DNA of 54,901 nt, the filler included, from Sluysia triapertura (lineage: Eukaryota), in assembly GCA_046118255.1 (NCBI GenBank). It is 4 parts of 4 records of this genome, joined end to end, with 100 filler letters (N's around TTAATTAATTAA, not from the genome) between each part and the next. Parts side by side here need not be neighbours in the genome. Positions count along the whole stretch, not along the records: positions 26,547 to 39,758 come from JBJNIA010052887.1; 3 more parts are not named here. One strand, written 5' to 3'. The notes beneath the pieces are model-generated. The model was not told the DNA's origin and did not search any database. It was given only the letters and a program-made list of their open reading frames with translations. The position numbers were made by a program, and so were the translations under genes. Positions 21,580 through 53,200 of this stretch are shown here, one piece after another. Within the stretch, counting starts at the first letter, position 1, and each line of letters starts with the position of its first letter.

Positions 21580-22143
21580 CGACTGGAAAGTGTTTCGAGC
21601 ATTCACATCATCAGTAACCTTTGAATGGTCTCTTAGTTTGGTGTTTGGTTATATAGTTTGATTCTATCACATTATGTTTCGGCATTTAGTCTATTACCAT
21701 TTTGTTGAACGATTATTATCTGAGATTTGGCGTACAAATAAATGTCGTAACATGAAGTAGCACACCAACAATCGCCTAATAAACAAAGCAAATGTGCTAG
21801 GTGGACGAACGAGAACTTTTGTTCAAAATCTATTATATTACTTTATTACTGAAGTTATTGAACCATCTTGGATTTACTTAGAAAACAAATATATCAAGCT
21901 TCTAATATTGATGCAGTTTTCGATGCACATAAGGAATACTTAAATTATTGTTTTCTTAATTGTAATTTAACATCATCCAATCATTTTCGGAGCTCGGAAT
22001 CATTTCTTGGAATGCGTGTGAAATTTTCTGACGAATTCGAAAATAAACTAAGCGCTAGTTTGTTTTTGGCACAAGATCAATTATTTATTACAAAATATGA
22101 AAAGTTCATTGATGAAAAAGATAAAAGATTAATAATTAATTAA
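21580..22143 (+). pseudogene. TUBGCP2: Gamma-tubulin complex component 2 (Spc97/98 family) C-terminal fragment
   Basis: EWSLSLV..Y.IMFRHL.Y.HFVERLL..IW / FVQNLLYYFITEVIEPSW / ASNIDAVFDAHKEYLNYCFLNCNLT; in-frame stops and a frameshift near 21870. Confidence 0.8.
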
Positions 22144-24592: not shown

Positions 24593-25075
24593 TAGTGGCC
24601 AACCTTGACAACCACTAAAATTTTATTAAAAACTAATATCTTTTTTCTCTTTTCATTATACTTTAACAATCATACATCTATCTCTTACATACTTTTTAAA
24701 ATCAATCTATGTCCACAATTCCACAACATCCAAATCACATTTACACCAACATTACCAAATTACATTAACTAATCCATCAAAAACATGTACTCGATATCCA
24801 CAATAATCCAACAACAAACACATTCGAGATAATCCACTTAATACTTTCGAACCCTTTATTTTACATTACACTTTAACAATTAATACTTAATATTTAACAA
24901 TATTCATTTAATAGTTTATTTGCTTAAACTAAATCACAATCACAAACTTAAAACACATAAACCACAATTACATTTATTACCATTTGACAACACCAGCAAA
25001 TCTACTTGAAACATATAAAATACCTACTTCACATCTTCGAATCAATTACAACGTTTTAAATTCACTATTCATTAA
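24593..25075 (-). repeat. G+T-skewed cassette, copy D (3' part)
   Basis: Reverse complement aligns colinearly with 2595-3039. Confidence 0.85.
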
Positions 25076-26446: not shown

Positions 26447-26546
26447 NNNNNNNNNNNNNNNNNNNNNNNNNNNNNNNNNNNNNNNNNNNNTTAATTAATT
26501 AANNNNNNNNNNNNNNNNNNNNNNNNNNNNNNNNNNNNNNNNNNNN
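26447..26546. other. Artificial contig linker
   Basis: N44-TTAATTAATTAA-N44. Confidence 0.98.
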
Positions 26547-26949
26547 TATAAGGTTACTAAAGGATCTCAAATGCTTATCGATATTTCAAGAATACTTAAA
26601 GGTTACTAAGGTTTTCAATGATCCAAAGGTTCTAAAGTTCAAAGGTGCCTTAATGCCTCTAAAAGTTCCTCAAGCCCATCTCAAGCTTTCATAAGGTCTC
26701 AAACCCTTACATAGGTCTTTGGAACTCAAAGGTATTCTTTAAATGTTAGGATCATTACAAATGTTTTCTTTATCATGATTCTTATTTCAACAATGTTTAT
26801 AATGCTCAATCCATCAATTTGTATAAGTTCTTCTTTGATTTTATAGTTCTATAAGTTTCTTACTCATTTCCTGATCTACAGTTGGGAAATCCCAACACAC
26901 GCAGTAGAAAAATTAGATGAAAATAGTCGTTTGTTTTACGACTAATACA

Positions 26950-27870
26950 AATGGACAATCAGCCATTTTCCTATTTAAGCTTAGTTTGTATGACTATTCA
27001 AGATTTATGTTAATCTAGGTTAATTTTTACACAAATATGCGAATAGATTGTTATACTTTTCCATATTATCGATTGTTGGATTTAGCTCGGCAAAAATTCG
27101 ATGAGAAATTTACTTGAAGTGGGTAAAAGTTTCCAAAATATTCCCGTGGCAAAGATGAACCCGAAAAAGGTGGTTTTTGTGCTTAAGTAGTGACTATCAA
27201 AAATACTTGTCACATTGTAACAGTAATAATATAAATGTAAAGAACATTAATAATCAGACGAGTAATTGTACTCAATCAGCATCAGCATTATTGTCTTCGG
27301 CGTCAAACAACAATAACGCAAACCATACTAAATTAAAGAAAAATAATAACCCTTTAATAAATGGTGTATATGGCAAATGGAAAAATATTTGCAAATAGCA
27401 AACATTCAAAATTATTTAACAAAATCTCATTTACAACACCAACCTCAGAATTATAACTCAAAAATGGCTAGTAGTAAAAGAAACATCAGTGTTAGTAATA
27501 CTAATAATAACGCTATGCTGTGTTATCCGTCTACCTCAGATTATTGTTTTAATTCCTTATCTAATGATAAATTACCTGCAACCGCTACATCTATTGACTT
27601 ACCCACATTAACATAAAATTCAACTGATTTGTTATTATCTTCTGTGTACGATGCATCTAGTAGAAGTCAGAAATTTTACTCGGCTGTTAAAACCAGTAAT
27701 TCGTTTTCCATAATAAATAGTCATTATTCAAATAAGCCATGTACTACTGATAATGCCAGTGATACAATAACTGGATCATACTAAAGGTGACAATCATAAT
27801 AATAATAATCATCATCATAATCACACTCGCATCATCATTTTAGTGGTATTCATTTTTCGCATCATCATGT
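26950..27870 (+). pseudogene. Forkhead transcription factor (FoxJ-like) pseudogene with N/S- and His-rich tail
   Basis: Stitched frames give QPFSYLSLVCMTIQ..L..TQI...I / TFPYYR...ARQ / NSMRNLLEVGKSFQNIP / RGKDEPEKGGF; KDEPGKGGFW is typical of FoxJ1. Confidence 0.75.
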
Positions 27871-28390
27871 TGTGTCTTTTATACTTTTTTACTTTATACA
27901 TTATTAATCAAAACCCAATAACTAAACAACTTCAGAATCTCGATATATTCTTTGAATAATCAAAAGTTACAGTTTAAAAGATAACAATTATTCTTTATGA
28001 CGACAATACAAAGTACACTTTATAACAAAATACAAGTTATTCTTTATAACAATATTGCGAATTATTATCCTTAGTTTTGACCCTTTCATCTACCATTATT
28101 CTTCACCAATCCCAACAATCACAATAATTATATCAATCAATTAAAATACGACAAGATACATCAATAAATTCATCAACTTTTTGTGTCTTTTAATACTTTT
28201 ATTTTTCCAAATTATTAAATTAAAATTCAATAACTAAATAAATTCAAAATCTCTATATAATCTTTATTTTATCACAAGATTGCAACTAAAATTATTCTTT
28301 AAAGCAACAACGATACAAAATATTCCTAATAACAATAATCATACATATTATCATATATAACAATACAAATTATTCTTCAATGACAAATAT
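27870..28390. repeat. Diverged tandem duplication, period about 311 bp, C+A-rich on plus
   Basis: TTGTGTCTTTT(A)ATACTTTT...CAATAACTAAA at 27870 and 28181. Confidence 0.75.
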
Positions 28391-29648
28391 CAACCAGGGA
28401 TGACATAACCTATTCACATCTTCGCACCCATATTAATACAAAATTATAAACAATATAAAATAATTCACTAACCCTTATTGTTCTAACTCTAAATGCTTAT
28501 TTGAATCAATTACTAAAGAACAAGCCTTGATATTACAGTTAACCATAGGTGAATCAAGGCAGCGTCCATACAGCTAAAATTTTCTTACGTTTTGTCTCTA
28601 TAACTATTTTTTCCTGATTTTCTTACAGAAATACAACTGCTTATATAACAGTTATATGACAAATAGTGAAATTAAAAATCAGAAACTGAACAAGACGGAA
28701 ATTAAAGCTGTTGATTTTCTTTTAGTCGGCAATAAACCGACTAATTTCGCTGATGAAATGTCGACAGCAGTTTCCGTCAATGTTCAACTTCATTATCATT
28801 CTAATTATCAAATTTGTGATAAACAATCCCTTTATCATTTTAATATCAAATTAAAATTTAAAATAATTGTTATATTGTTTTTATAACAGTAACATAACTT
28901 GTCAACTTAATTTAAAGATAAAATTAATGAAATGATAAATTTATTTCTCGCGGGAGTATTCTGCATTAATACGTTGTGCTTCAACCGTTCGTTGCACGTC
29001 AAGTTCAATAACATATTTGAAGTAGTATCTTTATAAACATTAATTTGATATATACTTTATTAATACTAAGACATCGGAACATATTTAACTTTAATTTTAA
29101 ATTATAAAAATTAATTAAAATAACTAATTTTTACGTTATTTACGTTGACGTGCTTCGCAATACTTCATCATTAAAAAAACTAATAAAACTCAATATTATA
29201 CACTAAATCTAATATCATGAGAAAACGTTTTTATTGACTTAACAAATTAAACAAATTTCAATTAAGTTAATTAACAAATGTACTTTAATATTTTAAGAAA
29301 TAAAACCTTTTAAAGGGTTATTTCTTCGTATTTCTCATTATTTTGATTTGATTAAAAGTATTTTATGTGTTTATCTTACCATTACAATTCATCATAATAC
29401 TGTAAAGGTCATTTGTTTGTTGATACCTAAAATAAATAAATAAATAATAAAGCAAACTTCAATATCTAAAAAGTAAATAAAAATTAATTTACAAAAAATA
29501 AACAAATAACTTGCTGTATATTCGAGGTTATACCTCAATAAATAAAAATCAATTAAAAATAAATTAAATTGATTTAACATATTTACACTGATTTTTTTTA
29601 CCTAAAGAAATTAAAATAAATAAAGTCATTACATTTTAATAAAATTAC

Positions 29649-30623
29649 TGTTAAAGTTATAAATGGTAAACAACTGAAGAGATATATAAAGGTTGAACAT
29701 AAAAATAAAGGAGACAGAACAGTATAAATCGATTCTAGAGATCGTATTTTACAAATTTTACATAGATTTCCAATTTATACTTGATATGTGATTTCTAATC
29801 GGTACGTAATTTGAGTTTTGATAATTTTGTACGATAATTTGTACTTGGTAATCGGAGATATTTGATACTTGTCAAACTAATTGGGAATATTTAGTAATTA
29901 ATTGGTAAAGAATTTTGGAAGATATTTTTTGTTACTTGTCAAGAGATCTGAAGAGTTTATTATGCTCAAGTGGCTGGATTCATCAATTCACTTTATAAAA
30001 AATACAGATTTTATCTTAATTGCTAAGATACAAAATTTTAATTTAATTTATTTAAAAAGTGATCTCTAATTTTAGGTTAAAGGCAGTTTGTCTATTATAA
30101 AATCAAGTTACAGTTATTAGAAAGTTAAATCTAATAATAATAATAATTTATTGTTTATATATTTGTATCATTTGTTTTAGCTATTATATTTTTCATTTTA
30201 TGTAATAAAAATTCAAACGACTTTAAATATAGTTCTGTTTTTTGAAGTTATCCATTAATTGTTAAGGAAGAAATAAAATAGTTCTTTAAAACTACTATTC
30301 GGAATATTTGTAAAGAATTATAGCAACTTTAATATTAAAAGAAGATATTTAGGTGTCATCAATTTGTTCAATTAGTGTTAAGTAAATTCTAAGTTTACGA
30401 TTTTCTTAAGTTGTCAGACCCTCGTTAAGTTTAATTATTAAAATCATACAGGAACGTCATATAAGCGTAAAACTTTAATCGTCGGCAAACTTAATAAGTA
30501 ACATTTAATTTGTTTATCGTTAAATTTAAGAAAAACACTAGCAATATCCTATCTCAAGATCCTTATTCTGTTATCCTGAGTCCTTACCTTTATGTTTCCA
30601 TTTATCCCTCACTAATCTCAACA
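29649..30623 (+). mobile_element. Possible solo LTR
   Basis: TGTT...AACA, TATATAAA near 29684, T-rich tract with AATAAA near 30204, layout like 7921-8954. No TSD found. Confidence 0.35.
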
Positions 30624-31350
30624 CAAGGATCTTTATGGATATGATAAAGAACCTTTATTTGTGTTCGTATCAAATGGTTTTGATGATACATCAATGATAA
30701 AAAGTCAAAAACAATTTATCGCGTGTTATTTGTCTCGGTTTAATGGCCCTGCAGTTACGGAAAAGAAATTGCTGACTAACGAAGTAGTCAAAAGATTTAG
30801 TGTTTAGATATTAGAAAACATTTAATAGTAACATTATATACAGAAGCTGCCAATGTTGGTCAACAAATGGAATTATAAAACGATTTCAAGAATGAAACTT
30901 TGGCAGCACACTTTAGATCTTTGATACAACATCAATTTGATTATATTCTAATACCAAAATTTCGTGGAGCTGACGCAAAATTACAATTTTCTAGAATATA
31001 TAACTAAACAATATTAACACACCGGAAAAAAATATAATAGCTCTAAAATATGAACCAAAGAATGATTTTGTTGATCTTTTAAAAGATGGAAATTCTCACA
31101 AAGTGTTATTTCTTTCCATAAAGTTTGATAGAATCACTTCTGTCCTATCAAATATCTCATTATAAACTTATATTAAAAGTTCTTATAAACCCAACATTAA
31201 ATGTTAGATGTTAGTAAAGCCATGCATTATTTAATAGCTTCAATTTTTGATTAAATTAATAAAATAAATGATTTTACTCCATAAATTTGTAAAAATAAGG
31301 CATTTTATAAAAGTACAAAAGTAAATCTATTTTTAAAAATTGTAATAATA

Positions 31351-31486
31351 CAGTGTAGGGTCATTAAGCCGCGTCTAAACTACTTACCGATGATTAAATA
31401 TTTTTTAAATCTTTAAAGTCATAAAATTGGGATCCAGCTTATTGCGTCACTTAAGCTAATTCGAGGGTTTAATGGTCTTACAGTTG
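31351..31486. mobile_element. Short inverted-repeat element (MITE-like)
   Basis: TGTAGGGTCATTAAGCC / GGTTTAATGGTCTTACA (13/17 Watson-Crick); a related end sits near 30737-30755. Confidence 0.5.
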
Positions 31487-31753
31487 CGAAGTAGTCGAGA
31501 GAGTTATTAGAAATTAGAAAAACCAAATGTACGTTTCTGAATTCTCCAGATATAAATTTATTGTGTAAATTGTGCAAGCATATTTGTCATGCAATTTAAT
31601 CCTCTTGTGAAATAATTTCACATTACCAGTCGTCAGATTTATTATAATATAATTTTTTTAATAATGTAAATTTATTTGTTTATATATAAAATTAAAAGTC
31701 ATTAATACAATTTCATAGTATTTTTTAAATAAAAACTAAAAACGGCCATCTGA

Positions 31754-32092
31754 TTGGTCGTGGTGCATTTAGTGTTAAGCATTATTATTAATCTGGATGA
31801 AAATAATTTATCACATACGATAATGTACCTACACATATCACATTCTGCATCTGATATATGTATCAAGAATAATCATAAAATAAAATTTATTCCATCTTAT
31901 TCTCCACAACTTAATCCAATTGAAGATGTTTTTTAAATGAAAAAAATCATAAAATCTGTAAATTGTCAAACAGAAAATCAATTAAAATTGAAAATAATCC
32001 AATCAAGTTTGGATATCACTAGTAAAGATTGTAACTCATGTTTTAAGCATTTGCGCGAGTATTTAATAAGATCAATTGATGAGTCCTTTTAA
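31754..32092 (+). mobile_element. Tc1/IS630-family DDE transposase C-terminal relic
   Basis: IKFIPSYSPQLNPIEDVF motif and downstream helix ...DCNSCFKH; internal stop. Confidence 0.85.
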
Positions 32093-32125
32093 CACGTTGA
32101 ATGCCACGGGGTAATCGGTGACCAT
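32093..32125 (+). mobile_element. piggyBac-like terminus (orphan)
   Basis: TTAA|CACGTTGAATGCCACGGGGTAATCGGTGACC with a subterminal near-palindrome. Confidence 0.4.
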
Positions 32126-32799
32126 TGAAGCCAAGATTATTAGAAACACATACTGAGAAATTCATGTAAAATTAAATAAATATCTTTTATTGTAAATTTA
32201 TTGTAATTTTATTAAAAAGTATGACTCTTCGCTTATTTTGGAGTTTTTTTATTTTATTGGATAATATAAATAAGCAATATATAATTACAATATTCTAATT
32301 AATTTCTAAAAAGATTAAGTTATATGACAAAATGTTTAAATTATTTGACAAGAAGATTAAATATTATAAAAATGTATTTATATTTTTTTTGAAGTAAAAT
32401 TTATCATTTATAATGTTGAGACATTTTCCAAACTTCATGAAGAATATACTTTTCAATAAGTAAAAAAAGACTTTTAGTCAAATATTTATATCATGTTTAA
32501 TTGAAAAAGATATTTAAATTGCAATTAGAGAAAAAATTGTTACGTAATAAACAATTAATGTATGTTTTTATAATAGAATTTAAATATCAAAACAATTTTC
32601 TACTTAAATAATTGGATAATTCAATGGCAAGAAATGTTTTAAAAATAATCAAGATAAACTTGAAAAATATAGAAATATCAAAAAAACATTTAAGATATAT
32701 TTTACATGTTTTCTAAGATAATAATAATATATTTAATTTACATTGCGCTCATATCTACTGCAAAATACTCAAAAGCACTTAAAGTAAATTATTTACTAT

Positions 32800-33470
32800 A
32801 ATATTACCATAAATTTAGTTAATATTTCATAATCTTCCAGTAATTTGATATTGTCTGGTAACTGGTTGTATATTTTTGAAACATAAACGGTATACATCCT
32901 ATCACCTAGCACGTTATCACTCTGGATTCTGTATAGATCATTGTCTCAATGAAATATTCATCTTGGTTTCCAAATTTTTTATTATTTCTAAGAGATATTC
33001 CATAATGTAGGCATTTGTAAATTATTATCATTATTTCTATTCTTGAATTCTATTCTTGCTTTTAATGGCAACCAATGTAATTCCTTAAGATAAGGTGTTA
33101 CATGAGATCTTGGAGAAGAAGAATATAATTCAGGATTTGTTGATTAGTTTAATTCAAAAATTCAAGAAAAATAAACAAAATATTCAATATTTATGATTTT
33201 ATTAGATTTATATTTTAATATATTAATTACTAAAATAATTTTAACTCTTTTAGAACCAGTGATGCGTGTTATTTTTCTTGTTTTCTTCCATTTTGAATCA
33301 AATATATCAATTAAGCACATTTTTCGTCAATTTTTTAATTAATATAACTAGATAAATCTTATTTGGATAAATGAGTCTCTTTCTCTTACAATAGATAAAT
33401 ACTATTGTCCCACAATTATCGATTCCTCAAATTGTATTTTGACATTTTCCATCACAAATAATTTTTCATA
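32800..33470 (-). mobile_element. L2/CR1-group LINE 3' fragment
   Basis: RSHVTPYLKELHWLPLKARIEFK..IIYKCLH and GDRMYTVYVSKIYNQLPDNIK. Confidence 0.8.
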
Positions 33471-33474
33471 CAAC

Positions 33475-34096
33475 TGTGAAAAATTAATGAATTTTTATAA
33501 AAGTGATTGATTATTTTTAATGAATTTCTTAATGGAAATATATATTAATATTTAATGGATTAATTGTTTTCGAGTAAATATTAATACATTAAATGAATAG
33601 AACATTATGCTTAATGGATTTTTAATGGAATGGCTGAATATAATAAAACGTACAACAAATTAAAAAACAGCGATTTAAAACGTATTATGGTTGGAAAGTT
33701 TTTTAGACATAACTATATTATATCCAATGATTGATCCGAACCGGGAGATTCTTAGTGTTACGAAGACAAATTCCTGATATTGCTCAAACCTCTTGACGAA
33801 CTAGATAAGTGTATTGTCGCTGAATTCGTTCCAGCCATTCTATTGGCTTCTGTCCTACTAGATAAATCGTAAGTTATATTTGTTAAGTTGTACCCTTAGT
33901 TTTCTACTTAGTTTAACGCTAATTTCAAAATCACTAAAAATTGTATTAATATTAAGCTAAGTCTTAATATTTTAATATCTTAATATTACTATCCTTTCGT
34001 AGTATTATTATCTTATTGTTCACAGTTTTTAAATTTTTTGCATAATTTTTATAATTATTTGTGTAATAAATATTTGTATTTACGGATTTCGTAACA
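33475..34096 (+). mobile_element. LTR-like segment
   Basis: T-rich tract with AATAAA ending TTCGTAACA (34088-34096), the exact inverse of TGTTACGAA at 33756. True 5' end uncertain. Confidence 0.4.
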
Positions 34097-34794
34097 GTAA
34101 TCACGAATAGTCATAAAGTAATACAAATTAATAAGACATCCAGCAACCAAATTGGCACAACTTATAAAAATAACTTTAAAAGCTATAGAAAAGTACTTCA
34201 TCAACTGTACATACACTGATAATAAAACAAATAACTGTACACATACATCAGTAAATTTTCATTAAACATAACAAACCCTTGATTTATAAAATCTTATAGT
34301 TTAAGCTAGCAATAAAATCTCTTAAAATTTAATACTTTTAAGCAAGAGAGGATCAAAAGTCTTCTATTGTTACTGCAAGTGTTCTGTCTTAAGAGAAACC
34401 TACTTAGTAAAATTGTTAACGTCTGGAAGAGAGTTAGGTTAGATAGAGACGATTTATGTCACTAGCTGACGACGGTCTAATTAGACTTATAACCAACGTA
34501 AAGAAATTAACTGCAAAAGATAACCTCAGCGAAATCAACTGGTAGCAATGTATAATCGGATTTTAATTTTATCTGTAGGTTAGGACAACCTTTTTACGGT
34601 CTGTCGAATGTTCAAATATTTTAAAGGTGAAATCAGCCTTTTTACGGTCTGATTATAATCAAAAAACGAAGAACTCTCAAATATAAGAGTATATTAATTA
34701 CAACTTACACACACTATATAATAAAGATAAGATTTTAAATTTTAACGTTTCCCTTAGATTGAAATAATTTTAATTCGAAGGTAAGTCAGCCTTT

Positions 34795-35512
34795 TTAAGT
34801 CTTGTTCAATAGACTTAAATTCTTATCTAAATTGTCCGAATAATTTACAGCAGTAGTGGGATATGTGCTTTTTACTCTGTTCAACACAGTATTAGTAGGT
34901 ATGGCTGGTTTTGAGTAGCAGTAATATCTAATTTGTCTAAGATTTGGTACACGTAAATCGCATACTCTATATTCTGGCAAAAATCCGAGTGTATTGTGAA
35001 TTTTTTTATGAAGTAGAATCCAAACCTCGATAAAAGTAAGATTTTGTTCAAATGCAAAAAATAGATAATTATCAGTTTTAGGAAGTATTAGTGCATAATG
35101 CTGTTCTTTATCAAATAATTCATCAAAATCCTTTTTGGGTGGGTTCTTTTTGTTTACTTCATAACCAATTAGTATAGCATTTTCCGTTAACGGGTTTGTT
35201 ATTTTCACAAAGTTATTTCTTTCCCTATATAGTAACATTGGAAATTTTATAGATATTGATAAATGATCAAAAGCATAAGATTTTGTTCTAATTCTATAAT
35301 CGTGTATTGATATAATTTTTGAGTTTTGGTTTGGTTCAAATTCAATTTCTAACTCCAAAGTAATATTAAACAATTGATTACACATCCATTGCACATCATT
35401 ACCCGATGACTGGTATATTTACTAATGTCCAATCCATGTTTACACCAATTAACCAAGCGACAACTAATAGAGATATTGGTGATTTTAGGAATATTACTTT
35501 GTATATTTCCAT
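34795..35512 (-). CDS. Accessory ORF (199 aa open; possible signal peptide from ATG 35512 via frameshift)
   Basis: 600-bp stop-free frame with complex composition; the upstream frame reads MEIYKVIFLKSPISLLVVAWLIGV. Confidence 0.55.
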
Positions 35513-35600
35513 ACATAATTTTTCGACGTGATTTAAATGTAATTCATGGTCTTATTATTATTCATATTGTATGTACGCTAATTATACATGTCATACATAT

Positions 35601-35867
35601 TCATGCTATCATGACTGACTGTAAGCTTGCCACCTGCCATCCTGTTGCGTATTCGTAGATAGGGGGTGGTGGTGGTGGCTCAAGATTATTTCTGTGTGGA
35701 ACAGTATATCGATCATCGTCGTCATTATTCGGAAGTAAGCACGGATATCTACACGGATATCTGTTTGACACAAACATGATAATTACTAGTATAACAATTG
35801 ATAGAGCAATGATGAATAATATTGCAGCTAAAATTAATATTAACAATGATGGATCCGTTCTTAACAT
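35601..35867 (-). CDS. 88-aa single-pass TM protein with PPxY motif
   Basis: About 26-residue hydrophobic stretch, RYPCRYPC, DDDD, EPPPPPPIYEY. Confidence 0.7.
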   Translation of the reverse strand: MLRTDPSLLILILAAILFIIALSIVILVIIMFVSNRYPCRYPCLLPNNDDDDRYTVPHRNNLEPPPPPPIYEYATGWQVASLQSVMIA

Positions 35868-36416
35868 TTCTGATAATGACAGATATTTTCGGTTCCTTTT
35901 AGTGTAAAATGTAGTTGTTCTAATTTCGCTGGTGCTACATATATCTTAGCAATAATAAGTCGCTCTTCGTTAGGCAAGAAATCAGTACATATGGCAATAT
36001 TATTTACCAAATTATTAATATAATATTCCTTTACGTTCCAAGAACAAGTTAAGTCTATTTGGTTTCAGACACATAAATCTCACTTGAATGTCGTTCTGTA
36101 ATATTTTAACTCTTACTTCTGTGTCATAATTATGAAATTCGAGATACTCGGTTTTATAAATTTGTACATCACATTGAACCGTGGTAGTTATTAAGACTAA
36201 CATTAAAGGTATTGGTTTTTTATTAATTGCGACTACGCCTATTTTTCTACTAAAGTCAATTATATGCAATCTGACCCAAATTGCATATATTACTATAAGG
36301 ATTACTGAAATTGGAATTAGTTTATATATTAATGTGATAATGTTGGACGGTATGTCATTTGATGTACAATTGTTTAGATATTTATTCATTGTAATATTCT
36401 GCACCAAATTTTGCAC
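35861..36416 (-). CDS. Accessory membrane or secreted ORF (frameshifted near 36030)
   Basis: Hydrophobic IPISVILIVIYAIWV, second signal-like PLMLVLITTTVQC; continues in another frame KEYYINN...ICHYQKC*. Confidence 0.5.
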
Positions 36417-36561
36417 CTTTCTCGTGTTTCACTTTGTGTCCAATGCAAACAACGCGAAATCTTATTTATGTGATTAATAGTGGGTCTAGATAAATACAAT
36501 ATATATCAAGTTTATGCCGTAAAACATTTTCTTTGAGCTAAATTTTATCTCCCAATATTCA

Positions 36562-37300
36562 TTATAAATATTCGTGACTGATATTTTTGTTCTTTTCCGT
36601 TATTAATTGCAGCATATAAATTCCTATACTTTCATCCTCATCAATATCTATGAATTTGACGAAATTAATCATTACCACTAATAGTATCATCCACCATGAC
36701 CTCTTATGATTATTTACCCTGGTAAATGTAAGCATTACTGTATCGACAGAGCCAATTCTCGATGATGATGATTCCGAAAATTCACTCGTTACTGCTGACA
36801 TTGATGAGTCTGTTGATGACTCATCCCATAAAAAATCAAATAATCGAATTGGTAGAGGAACTGGATTACTAGGTTGGATTTCCGGTGTTGAAATATTAAT
36901 CGGAGCAATATTACTACTACGAGATGGAATAATAACCTGTGGAAGTATTAATTGTGCACCTTGAGGAAATTTTGTAAGACCATACATACAATGTATGACT
37001 GTGTCATCTAATTTATCGAGTGTGTCTAAGCAAATTATTAAATCAAAAGGGGATTCTTTCCAAACACAGATATATTCATTTACTCGTTTGTCTAATATAC
37101 CCAAATGTGCGTGTATTATTCCATCTATATTTATCGGTGTCCGTTGCAGGTTATAAATTATTGTTGGCGGTGGATCCAAAAATACAATTTCCCATGTGGT
37201 CAAAAAATTATAGTGTATTACTGATGTGGTTGCTCCCGTATCAATATTGCTTGGATCCATCTACCATTGAATCGTACGTTTTGGAAAATATGCGTAAGTA
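36562..37300 (-). CDS. Retropepsin-like aspartic protease + Ser-rich linker + hydrophobic segment, downstream of integrase
   Basis: VRFNGRWIQAI[L]/DTGATTSVI (DTGA at 37231-37242); FDLIICLDTL resembles DxILGxDFL; WWMILLVVMINFVKFI. Confidence 0.75.
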
Positions 37301-37329
37301 TTCCAGTTGATACATGGTACATCATTACT

Positions 37330-39282
37330 ACTTGCTTATGAACCAGCGACTGAACTGAAGATGGTGGTTTATCTCGATCTTTTGTTTTTGGTTTAACCTT
37401 TAATTTAGACTTTTTAACAGTTCTATTTCTTAACTGGTATTCATCACTTGGTACTATCTTACATCTGTTGACATGTACTATAAAAGTTTCGGAATCTAGT
37501 TTGGTTGTATCTTTAACAAATAAATTGGTATCGGTGATTTTTATTATTTCATGTGGTCCCTTAAATGGCTTATGTAACTTTGGTGATTGTCCCGTTTGGT
37601 TAATGGATATTCGATGAGTATCTTATCACCAATCTGAAAATTGTGCTCTTTAGCTTTCTTGTCGTATGCATCCTTATGTGCTTCTTGTGAAAATTTTATT
37701 TGTAAACCAGCACGTTTCCAAGCATCTTGTAGTCTTTCGTGCATTATTCTTACGTATTCAGGCGTTTCCATATATTGAGATGTAGGTAGTATCCATTCTA
37801 AGTCCACTGGCATATTTGAGTGACGTCTGTACATTAAATAAAATGGAGTAAAATTTATTGCTTGATGCACCGATGCGAATAAACACGGTGAAATATATAA
37901 GTCCCAGTCTGTTTGCATATCATTTACGTTTGATTGAAGCATATTTATCAATGTTCGATTAAACCGTTCAACTAGTCCATCCGTCTGCGAATGATAAGGT
38001 GATGTGTAAATTCTTAAAATGTCGAATATTTTTGCCACTGATTTAATTACATCACTAGTAAAATTTGTACCCTGATCTGTAAGTAACTTTCGTGGCGTAC
38101 CATATCTGTATATTATTTTTTCTACAAGTATCTGTGAGACAGTTTCTTCCCTTTGATTCTCATTGGGTACGCCTCAGGCCATTTAGTTAAGTAGTCGGCA
38201 AATACAATAATATATTATTTCCATTAAAAGTTTCTGGTAGTGGTCCCACCATATCCATTGCTGTAAAGTCCATGGGTGATAATGAAACTGGCATTGGTTT
38301 AAGTGGTACTTTTGTCCGAGTTCCAGTATTTTTCCTTCTACAACAGAATGAACTATCTTTACACCATTTTCTAATGTCTTCTTCCGTGCTTTCCCAATAA
38401 TATTTATCTTTTATGCGTGATAATGTTTTTCTTAAAGACAGATATCCACCTAATTGACCATCATGAAATTGTATTAGAATTGGTGTTATCAGTGATTTAG
38501 GGACTATGGTTTTCCAGTCTTCTTTTGAATCTCTAAATCGAAGAATTCCGTCCGTAATGGCTAATCTCTTTGCCTGATTTTCGATTAGTGTCCCTTTCGC
38601 TAATGAATCAATAATACATGAAATTTATTCATCTTCCCTTAGATGTTTGATAATTTCCTTAGGGTTTTGCAACTTGCTTGATATTGCCATAATTTTTATT
38701 AAATTAATATTTGCTTTATCATTTACGTTTGTCGGTCGTGACATACAGTCAGCGCCATTGCTTTGTGAACCTGGTTTGTAGATAACTTTTAAGTCAAATT
38801 CAGATAGTTTGTTGAACCATCTATTTAGTCTGCTCACTTCATCTCTATGGTTGTACAAGTAGGTTAGTGGTTTGTGACCTGTATATAAATAAACTTTTTG
38901 CCCTAACAGATAATGTCTAAATAACTTGCATGCGTATACTCTTGCTAAACACTCCTCTTCTATTGCAGAATAGTTCATTTCAGTTTTATTCAGTCTTCGA
39001 CTAGCATATGCGATTACCGCTTCTAAATTGTTCATATCCTTTTGTCCCAAAATTGCTCCTATGGCATAGTTAGTGGCATCTGTGGTGATTATAAATGGTT
39101 TATTGACATCTGGAAATATTAATATTGGTGTCGTGGTTAGCCGTTTTTTTTAATTTTTTAAAGGCTTTTGTTTGTTCTTCTGTCCATCTAAATTCCACAT
39201 CTTTCTTTGTTAATTTTCTGAGGGGCTGGGCTATCTTAGCAAAATTTTTAACAAAACTTCTATAATAATTAGCTAAGACTAA
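37330..39282 (-). pseudogene. pol: pol: RT connection, RNase H, integrase with GPY/F module
   Basis: LANYYRSFVKNFAKIAQPL; TDATNYAIGAILGQ; YSAIEEECLA; MDMVGPLP; LLTDQGTNFTS; PYHSQTDGLVERFNRTL; KLHKPFKGPHEI; several frameshifts. Confidence 0.95.
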
Positions 39283-39541
39283 AATTTTTATGTAGTAATC
39301 ATAAAATAATAATAAAATGGTACTAAAATTTAAAATAACATTTATAAAATAATTTATATTTCTAATTTAGTAAAATGAGCTAATTTATCGACTAATTATT
39401 TACAAATATTGATATATACAAAAATATTAAATTAATTATTTACAAATATTAATTAAAATGTTGTTTTTAAATACAACTTAAACATTAAATCATTACATTA
39501 AATTATTTTTAATCATTAAATTTATTACATTTATTATTTAC

Positions 39542-39600
<59 letters not shown>
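39542..39600. repeat. (AAT)n microsatellite
   Basis: Direct. Confidence 0.95.
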
Positions 39601-39601
<1 letters not shown>

Positions 39602-39758
39602 TGTTAGGTCTTCCATCACGACACTTTAAAATATCATAAAATGTTTTAAAATTATTTATGTGTCAAAAAACACATAAAAAGTATTAATTTTCCAAAAAAG
39701 AAATTATTTTTTCTAAAAAAGAAAATAAAATTTCTAAAATAGAAAATAAGCTTCTAAA

Positions 39759-39858
39759 NNNNNNNNNNNNNNNNNNNNNNNNNNNNNNNNNNNNNNNNNN
39801 NNTTAATTAATTAANNNNNNNNNNNNNNNNNNNNNNNNNNNNNNNNNNNNNNNNNNNN
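39759..39858. other. Artificial contig linker
   Basis: N44-TTAATTAATTAA-N44. Confidence 0.98.
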
Positions 39859-50269: not shown

Positions 50270-53200
50270 ACATGCCTGGGCAAATGTTCTCTAGACAAAA
50301 GTTAACATATATGATATTTTTGCGCACTTAAACCATAAATAATCCGAGTGAGAATGGTTTGTCAGAGGGTTACTTTTCATATGGCAAGACATGTACGTGT
50401 TTTCCAAATATGGCTGTTGGAAAGATTGATCAGCTCATGTAGATATTTCCACACTTTATCATTATGAAACCTACTGGTGTCGGATTAAATGGACAATTTA
50501 ATTTGATCATCCTTGAGAATGGAATTCTAATTTTACACTACCAGGTTTGTAATCATGCAGTCTTATCAACTTGACATCAATTTAACCAATATAGTGAATG
50601 AGTTACTCAGTTACCTGCTTTAGGTGATTCTCTGAAACCATCATAATTACGGAATGCGCAGACTACATTTTGACAAATATAGTCATCTTAAGCATAAATC
50701 ACACTAAGATCTCCATGATTTTTATGAGCATAAAAGAAACAATTATTAAGGGGAAACTGTTTCGAGCCCAGAAATAATTTGAAGATCTTGTGGATTATTT
50801 CGTTATAACCTACCGATTTGGAGAGATTCCTGGATTGTTTGCTATGAGGACTAGTGAAAGTTTGAGTATTGATATTGAGGCTACGTGAGTGTAAGAAGTT
50901 TCCATATATAAGAAAATTACTTTGGCAAGTGAGACTGCACGTCTGAATCTTGCGGGCATATTCAAGATTTTTCTGCAAAAGTTTCTGAAAACTTTGTTTC
51001 TTCAGTTCGCCAAATGGGATCCCTAAGTAAATCATATTAGTATCATTGTATTGTTAATGCTAAAGCAAAGTTAACTTTCAGTGATGTAGTAGAAGCATTT
51101 AGTTGGGAGGAAAATAAATTTTGATGACTTAGCTTGCTCAACAACACGATTTATGACCTGTTGTAGTTGTTCGTGTGATGTGTGGATTAGGACAATGTCA
51201 TCTTCATAAATGAGATATTACGGAAATGAAATGCCATTAATCAAGAAGTCGTCCTTTGGGGGAAGGAATGAAATAAAAAGACAATGGAAATACAAAATAG
51301 TGTCACTGACAATGGAAACTAGTGGTACTGTCATCACAAATGTTCTTAAGGAGGTTGATGGAGACCCAGTGAAGAAAGTGTTTGGAAGATGAGCCGGTGA
51401 GGCACAGACCCAAAAGCGTTGGCACTTTCAAGAAATACGGTATAAAGTTTCTTCTGCACTGTCTTCTTATGGTTCAAAGAAGCAATAATATCCTGAAGAC
51501 TGTACAGCAAGAAATTATGTTCAGTTTAGCCACCAGAGCTAAGAAGTGAATCCAAGATAAAAGGCGATCATTGGCAAATATTCTATATGTGGAATAAAGG
51601 ATCGCAATTTCTCGCCACGAGCTCAACTTCATGAACGGCGTGGAATTTGCTCCGTTAATGATAAGAAGAGTGGTAAATGCTTTCCAAGGCTTTGTTATAT
51701 TTTGTATACGCAATATTTTATTAAATAGGAAACAATGTAATTTTCCTGCAGGAACTATATCTGTGATAGTCGCAAAAGTGATGGTATTAGGACCAGGGAC
51801 ATATTTCTTACAAAATTTCATGGTCATTGCAACTTCATTTTCAGTAATGGGTTTATTCGTTGAGCATTCTATAAAGCGCGGGTGAAGAATCACTTTCGAG
51901 GCATCAAATGGAGGAAAATTCCCGTACTATAATATTGACACATATCTTATGCAGAAGCAGTAATTGGAGGAGAATCAATTCCTATCACTAAGTGAAACAA
52001 TTTCGTTTAATTCTCATCGGAGATTTATCGAGATCGTGATTGTCCGGAGGCTTCAAGGATTGGGATTGCTTCATCTGTGCTAAGAAACTTTGGGGGATGA
52101 AGTCTTAGAATTAGATCGCAGAAATCAGAAAGTGCCTCATATATGGACAAATTCGCAACACTGATTAGGGAATTTCATAAGGATTGTAGCGATGGATGAG
52201 GATGTTTACTATTATTGCCCTCCACGGATTGGGTCACAACATTATAGAAGATCTCAAGCTTGGCACCAATGTATGGGATAATAAAAATAATAATATCTGG
52301 ATTGCAATTGTACTGAAACGCAATATTGCAGATAAAAGGACCGCAGTCAATTGGTCCTGCTGAGTAGGATAAGGAATGGCGCGGCGTTGATATCCCTGCG
52401 CTTTAGGATAAATTCGCAGAATGGTATAGTCAAGCATAATCTTACCAATGTAGTCACCTAAGAGAAACCGGTTTCGTGAATACAGATCAAGTGAGTTAAT
52501 AATTTTATAGGAATTAGAATCCCGATTAAAAATGATCAAAATCAAATGACATTTTATATTTGTGATGCAAGAGAAGTAAAGCCAGTTTGAGCATTTACAG
52601 AGGGAGAAATTGTTCAGAAAGGCTTGAGCATCGCCAAACCGAACAAAATTATTTGTGATGCAAACAACAACTACTGAATCGGAGTCAGAAATATAAGCAG
52701 TGAGAGGAAGTGAATTTGACTCATTAACTAAGTCAAGATCTATCGCTGTAGGAACAATGGATACACTATCAACACGTGTTGGGTGAGTTCTGCGTGACTA
52801 TCAAATACCATCGAGCACGAACATTTCGTTGTTATTGGAATACCAGTGGTATTGTGCTTTCGGCTTAGATGTCGCCGCAAGCTAGTCCCATCATTAGTGT
52901 TAAGTTTTGTTTTATGTCACAAGCAACACATTTTACCTGGTCTGGGGAAGTTACAGTTTTTCAGGAATAACTGGCAAGGTACTTCCCTTTTTACCCGAAG
53001 CATTCAGTATATTTATCTAATCAATATGAAATGTAATGCATTCCACCCAATGTTGGATTGATCCACAAATGAATTTAAACCAGAGATCACTAAGCGCAAC
53101 GGTGAGCTGGTGTTTGCTGCTAAAGTGTTTTTGATTTACCTATTATTAGTAGGATTTTTAATTATTAGGGATTTCGTTGTGCTTTTATTACGAGCACATT

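Follow-up and report, generated by a model that had tools for sequence, protein, structure and literature searches.

A retropepsin-like domain behind the integrase in a decayed Ty3/gypsy-type element of Sluysia triapertura

Pol domain order in described elements and in the window copy

According to the available part of the ICTV profile of the Metaviridae, the pol gene of these elements encodes protease, reverse transcriptase (RT) and RNase H as well as integrase, and env lies downstream (PMC7879559). In the Gmr1 clade the integrase is placed ahead of RT (PMC8220671), and GAG-ENV-POL arrangements occur in several non-insect animals, with chromodomains after the integrase, rearranged env positions and duplicated RNase H also on record (PMC13524379). 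Other elements carry additional modules: a dUTPase follows the integrase in some, the bdelloid Vesta, Juno and TelKA elements have enzymatic and transmembrane (TM) ORF3s, and an ORF3 in LTR retrotransposons usually forms a unit of its own that is produced by splicing (PMC5408684). In the planarian Burro element env lies between gag and pol (PMC6431247), and in the MDG1 group a small TM protein, sORF2 or FAST-like, is sometimes encoded downstream of pol and has been proposed to allow spread without Env (PMC11952523). These descriptions, and the comparisons made with them below, refer to the portions of the papers that were available. Within the literature searched, PMC2238898 and PMC9940879 included as far as their text was available, we found no case of a protease after the integrase, nor did a word search of seven supplementary files of PMC13524379 return one; Repbase, the GyDB pages, most subscription papers and bioRxiv supplements lay outside this search. 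The layout described here is thus probably, not certainly, new. The TATE elements, considered for a protease after RT and RNase H, were discarded as a precedent, the domain in question (Peptidase_A17) being in fact an RNase H in the available part of PMC6681497.

The window, that is the whole stretch of DNA that was analysed, comprises 54,901 nucleotides (with filler counted) of Sluysia triapertura (GCA_046118255.1); it is AT-rich (about 25% GC), and its positions 26,547-39,758 come from JBJNIA010052887.1. The pol element sits on the minus strand in a more GC-rich island running from about 39290 to 33700. It begins with the C-terminal end of RT (39145..39288), which tblastn of all 16 Pol matches reaches and none exceeds, and this marks the 5' limit of the copy. 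There follow, on the same strand, an RNase H of the Ty3/gypsy type (38796..39110; PF17917, E 1.1e-34), the zinc-binding domain of the integrase (38328..38504; PF17921, E 2e-14), in which one His and one Cys position are substituted, and the integrase core (37604..38258; PF00665, E 2.6e-5, and tblastn), which is interrupted by frame changes and has the D/D/E residues at 38255, 38077 and 37969. The GPY/F module of the integrase (37455..37592) was located by tblastn to the C-termini of relatives P0003, P0007, P0009, P0013 and P0015, and had no Pfam match when searched alone. Pfam found the pol domains in successive broken ORFs, the gypsy-type RNase H and H2C2 integrase signatures being PF17917, PF17919 and PF17921. 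When the 16 relatives were aligned back to the window, their matches ran from 39288 to 37443 through RT tail, RNase H, integrase and GPY/F in turn, and none extended below 37443. Judged by its RT-RH-IN order and its domain types, the element is a Ty3/gypsy (Metaviridae-type) LTR retrotransposon. Neither the RNase H tree (17 rows) nor the integrase tree (12 rows), whose references are mostly unnamed, contained a supported group holding the window copy.

With the Metaviridae (PMC7879559) the element has in common the RT-RH-IN order, the PF17917 RNase H, the H2C2 integrase and the GPY/F module, and its protease also belongs to the gag-asp_proteas/RVP clan; whereas their protease precedes RT, that of the window copy lies behind the integrase and has no RT after it. 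Like Gmr1, it is a gypsy element with a non-standard pol domain order, the difference being that Gmr1 relocates the integrase, whereas here RT-RH-IN is canonical, with the integrase downstream of RNase H, and a protease has been added or moved behind it. The bridge between RNase H and integrase is short, in contrast to the long one of the insect errantiviruses.

The copy is dead, decayed and 5'-truncated. The codon-model path through the element has eight frame changes and one in-frame stop across 1376 codons, and only one of the eight breaks lies near a base run longer than 4. At the third catalytic position of RNase H, 14 of the 16 relatives have Asp and the window copy has a substitution; taking RNase H and integrase together, 3 of 11 catalytic or zinc-ligand positions carry a substitution (one non-catalytic control column omitted). 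Beyond 39288 there is no further Pol homology, and the nearest gap is still about 470 bases away, so the truncation was not caused by the gap itself; the DNA above this point is AT-rich (13% GC). The gaps of the window (11829-11928, 26447-26546 and 39759-39858) are 100 bases each, composed of two N runs flanking a 12-base palindromic linker, and are not biology. Neither a primer-binding site (PBS), a polypurine tract (PPT), gag nor LTRs were seen in the truncated copy, there was no purine run of at least 10 on the element strand within 33400-35200, and the window held no LTR pair and no second copy of the element. The layout reported here rests on a single dead copy in this window.

The protease and its junction with the integrase

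The initial annotation had described the frame of the GPY/F module as running on without a stop, and the restoration of one G near 37243 as yielding the start of a retropepsin fold; the open frame and a frame break at this site were both borne out. The frame is open from the module (37592-37455) down to 37221. It passes through a stop-free basic linker of 55 codons (37290..37454, minus strand), identified by frame reading and codon position bias, and then through the 13 residues that form the N-terminal strands of a retropepsin (37283-37245). The frame break falls just before the catalytic Asp, so that the D-T-G (37242-37234) and all that remains of the domain are read in a frame adjacent to that of these strands; no other D-[TS]-G-[AS] motif occurs in any of the window's six frames. 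We considered a programmed frameshift at 37243 and rejected it because there is no slippery run at the site and such a shift would split the active-site strand.

Codon position bias in the linker favours the pol frame (+6.6, versus -4.4 and -12.2 for the other two frames), and 55 random codons of the same composition would be free of stops with a probability of about 1.2%. The 16 relatives, at most 54% identical, were recovered from 271 candidates by an RNase H search; in the eight of them where it can be measured, the tail that follows GPY/F is 2-66 aa long (50 and 66 aa in P0001 and P0007), so the open 55 aa seen here are within the ordinary range and a lost stop is possible. The linker also contains a Met-Met (37328-37323), which includes the internal Met at 37325, and, at 37350, a pyrimidine-rich CAG (11 of 15 pyrimidines) that weakly resembles a splice acceptor and is one of nine YAG sites listed.

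The domain downstream of the linker (36988..37289, minus strand, with the frame break near 37243) is, by sequence and profile, a retropepsin (clan AA aspartic protease), as its initial identification had proposed, with activity at the level of prediction. It was recognised by the ESM Atlas, by a custom HMM and by motif alignment, the two sides of the frame break being tested separately and also joined with an X at the break. When the part downstream of the break alone was submitted to the ESM Atlas, the first match scored 0.96 (recognition 2770), the second was a cluster with 88% PF13650/PF13975, and the ten best family-bearing matches were all in the retropepsin clan. The custom HMM was built from the N-terminal proteases that can be recognised in 10 of the 16 RNase H relatives; it gave the window protease 17-19 bits, compared to 9.2 for the best of 2000 shuffles, and this match (E 5e-4) was the sole significant one in any of the window's six frames. 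In leave-one-out runs the canonical proteases scored 18.7-84.3 bits and the window protease 11.9-20.3, which makes it a divergent member. Pfam on the separate frames and phmmer against the PDB returned no protease match. The single-sequence AlphaFold model (pLDDT 33.5) was uninformative.

The N-terminal piece was evaluated by an ungapped comparison with the matching positions of the 10 canonical proteases, taking the best of two registers per frame. It scored -0.8, within the range of the real proteases (-5.0 to 5.7), versus -14.5 to -18.4 for the two other frames; 12 of 1176 control 13-mers scored as well. Adding this piece left the HMM score unraised (17.4 versus 17.0 bits). A second protease motif (37044-37024) aligns at its expected place, about 65 residues downstream, with a Cys at a column that is Gly in 10/10 canonical proteases. 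This Cys could reflect decay, a possibility raised by the 3 of 11 RNase H and integrase positions that are also substituted, or it could be real divergence, and it says nothing on whether the enzyme of the family is inactive.

No protease was found after RNase H or integrase in any of the 16 relatives (best 3.8 bits). Homologues of the ORF consisting of the protease and its tail numbered zero at E<=0.001 among 1.84 billion representatives, with none among 606 longer candidates, and the integrase's C-terminal half had no homologue among 20 candidates. None of six ORFs of the element itself was present by exact look-up in the sequence collection, so these empty searches say little.

The initial annotation had named a second, nested element with its own gag or LTR as one finding that would overturn its reading. 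Behind the protease, tblastn with the Pol relatives found no RT; in the 55-codon gap between GPY/F and protease no gag or LTR was seen; and the window has no LTR pair. A nested canonical element behind the integrase is therefore excluded, and the order RT-RH-IN-PR is supported in the window copy. As to the proposed fusion of the protease to Pol, the continuity of the frame stands in its favour, against which must be set that this is one decayed copy with its frame changes and its in-frame stop.

The hydrophobic tail and the accessory ORFs

The protease is followed by a Pro/Ser-rich linker of 86 aa (36709..36966, minus strand; 17 Ser, 9 Pro), in agreement with the Ser-rich linker first noted there. 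A basic patch comes next, then a hydrophobic stretch, recognised by hydropathy, and a short tail that ends in a double stop (36559..36708, minus strand). The initial annotation had extended the domain order to RT-RH-IN-PR-TM on account of a hydrophobic helix acting as a membrane anchor. A hydrophobic core of 13 residues is indeed present (36696-36658, KD 1.79), but the best 19-mer of the tail scores +4.4 on the insertion scale versus -7.0 for the TM segment of the accessory ORF-A described below. As a predicted membrane anchor the tail is thus marginal, and it could equally be a signal-like or a re-entrant segment; the RT-RH-IN-PR part of the order was seen in the window copy, while its TM part is weak.

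When a codon model was trained on pol alone, it called 85% of the block 34795-36990 coding on the strand of pol. Over this block it scored 72.1; none of 30 shuffles exceeded 2.7, the opposite strand gave 3.1, and the six flank tests stayed at or below 5.3. The protease therefore stands at the head of 2.2 kb of accessory ORFs that run in the sense of pol and share its codon usage, which the initial annotation had not noted. ORF-A (35601..36389, minus strand, from the codon-model path and hydropathy; broken twice) has a hydrophobic N-terminal segment, a signal-like segment, a Cys-containing ectodomain of about 115 aa and a strong TM segment at about 35846-35770, followed by a Cys-rich juxtamembrane tail, an acidic patch and a PPxY motif. 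Its Pfam matches were weak only (best E 0.008), and it is predicted to be a membrane protein with a PPxY tail. In enveloped viruses the PPxY motif is a recruitment signal for Nedd4-type ligases and ESCRT. ORF-B (34795..35512, minus strand, from the codon-model path; broken once near 35410) has a signal-like N-terminus, a soluble domain of about 200 aa with five N-glycosylation sequons and no TM segment, suggesting that it probably encodes a secreted protein. It had no match in Pfam or the PDB and no usable match in the ESM Atlas, and its single-sequence AlphaFold model (pLDDT 34.8) was uninformative. That one domain is repeated among the accessory ORFs was considered and found unsupported (best in-frame E 0.16-0.3).

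The downstream ORFs had no match to F- or gB-type Env families in Pfam, the PDB or the ESM Atlas, in searches whose sensitivity the broken ORFs lower, and both ORFs appear too short for a class I or class III fusogen. In having membrane-protein ORFs near pol, and in ORF rearrangement, the element is like the errantiviruses and the GAG-ENV-POL and ENV-GAG-POL elements (PMC13524379); the errantiviruses carry F- or gB-type Env, whereas the ORFs found here, of about 260 and 240 aa, match no family. As with Vesta, Juno and TelKA (PMC5408684) and Burro (PMC6431247), captured enzymatic or small TM ORFs follow pol or extra domains join the polyprotein; the cargo described for those elements is a GDSL lipase, a DEDDy nuclease, Env, BIR, ankyrin and the like, with no retropepsin after the integrase in the available text. 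ORF-A further resembles the sORF2/FAST-like proteins (PMC11952523) in being a small TM protein downstream of pol, and differs from them in its larger size, its Cys-containing ectodomain and PPxY tail, and the absence of an N-terminal Met-Gly myristoylation start.

The remainder of the island (33700..34794, minus strand) is a probable 3' non-coding part of slightly raised GC and CpG, in which UTR and LTR are not delimited. A 14-nt motif occurs in it twice, at 34650 and 34602. Beside this repeat, on the strand opposite to pol, eight bases (34540-34547, plus strand) are, on our assumption, like an initiator-Met primer-binding site, which may be chance or the leader of another element.

Several other features were observed in the window. 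At 9059-11830 (plus strand) there is a decayed gag-like element with a capsid-like start, Asn/Gln-rich repeats and one CCHC knuckle (PF00098, E 0.13), after which about 1.6 kb of charged, coding-like sequence makes an unusually long Gag; it has no protease motif before the gap, and no tie to the family of the pol element was established. Broken ORFs at 50688-51926 (minus strand), which we take to resemble the RT region of a non-LTR retrotransposon, had no Pfam match. The window also contains a tRNA-Arg gene at 7049-7121 (plus strand; anticodon GCG, which is rare in eukaryotes), possibly a pseudogene or variant; an exon-like piece of a gamma-tubulin complex component at 21862-22143 (plus strand; PF04130, E 6e-4); a Gln/Asn/Tyr-rich open frame of 523 codons at 3-1571 (minus strand) that runs off the window and has no convincing Pfam family; and inverted copies of about 300 bp at 2598-2915 and 24747-25071 (83-87% identity), probably a small dispersed repeat or MITE.

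Explanations of the layout and their meaning

The reading that we prefer, with a probability of about 0.55, is that Pol of this family really ends with integrase, linker, protease, spacer and hydrophobic tail, and that two accessory ORFs, one for a membrane protein and one for a secreted protein, lie behind it. Retropepsins are obligate homodimers. In the mechanism that we propose, the hydrophobic tail would bring Gag-Pol to a membrane, where the protease would dimerise and free the integrase from the tail during particle maturation; membrane exit or passage from cell to cell would be assisted by ORF-A, through its TM segment and PPxY motif, together with ORF-B, the two standing in for a classical Env. 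The element is best regarded as functioning in the Ty3/gypsy manner, with modules captured behind the integrase.

Whether the protease is a second one or a relocated one had been called undecidable from the sequence at hand, and we agree; the 5' homology ends at 39288. We lean modestly towards a second, accessory protease because captured modules usually land behind the integrase and because the scores of the window protease are at or under the bottom of the canonical range. It is possible, at odds that we put well short of even, that a gypsy lineage moved its only protease to the C-terminus of Pol, giving Gag-RT-RH-IN-PR-membrane tail, with maturation tethered to the membrane and accessory membrane and secreted proteins replacing Env. 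If true, this would add a new pol order to PR-RT-RH-IN, PR-IN-RT-RH and that of Gmr1.

A further reading, which we regard as rather unlikely, takes protease, linker and tail to be an accessory gene in its own right within this element, of the ORF3 type, with expression either through a spliced subgenomic RNA or by a start at the internal Met; the substrates of its product would be the accessory membrane proteins or a host protein, and the continuity with the pol frame would come from a lost stop or coincidence. The Met-Met with the pyrimidine-rich CAG just upstream of it, the tails of P0001 and P0007, and the typically separate, spliced ORF3s of LTR retrotransposons (PMC5408684, as far as available) are consistent with such a gene, but the whole linker favours the pol frame by codon position bias, a stop-free run of this length would seldom arise by chance, and the candidate acceptor is weak and has eight competitors.

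We judge it just as improbable that the copy is a one-off chimera, in which template switching or a deletion fused the 3' end of pol to the protease region of a different element, with the frame preserved by chance; the donor could, for example, be of a gag-PR-membrane-ORF type with envelope-like ORFs before pol. Donors of this kind are suggested by the GAG-ENV-POL elements of several non-insect animals (PMC13524379) and by the env between gag and pol in Burro (PMC6431247), both from the available text. The copy is moreover truncated and decayed, and the end of the linker may resemble a Gag/PR junction. Against this, the join had to be in frame (1 in 3) and the donor protease had to lack an RT behind it, codon usage is continuous over the junction, and no gag remnant or LTR lies between integrase and protease. 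An assembly artefact in which collapsed repeats joined pieces of two elements is very improbable: although this is a draft assembly with three gaps in the window, and eight frame changes to one stop could be read errors, no gap lies inside the element, the breaks mostly avoid longer base runs, the substituted catalytic residues indicate real decay, and a misassembly that happened to join in frame is unlikely.

The order of pol domains is a main criterion in the classification of LTR retrotransposons, and the canonical protease adjoins Gag. A protease behind the integrase would mean that its position is free, or else that these elements can carry two proteases with different tasks. Annotation tools that expect the protease before RT, or that rely on Pfam, would miss such a domain, as Pfam did here. 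The accessory block is a candidate for a route of spread that is independent of Env, and if intact copies share the layout, it would be a new arrangement for a gypsy-type element.
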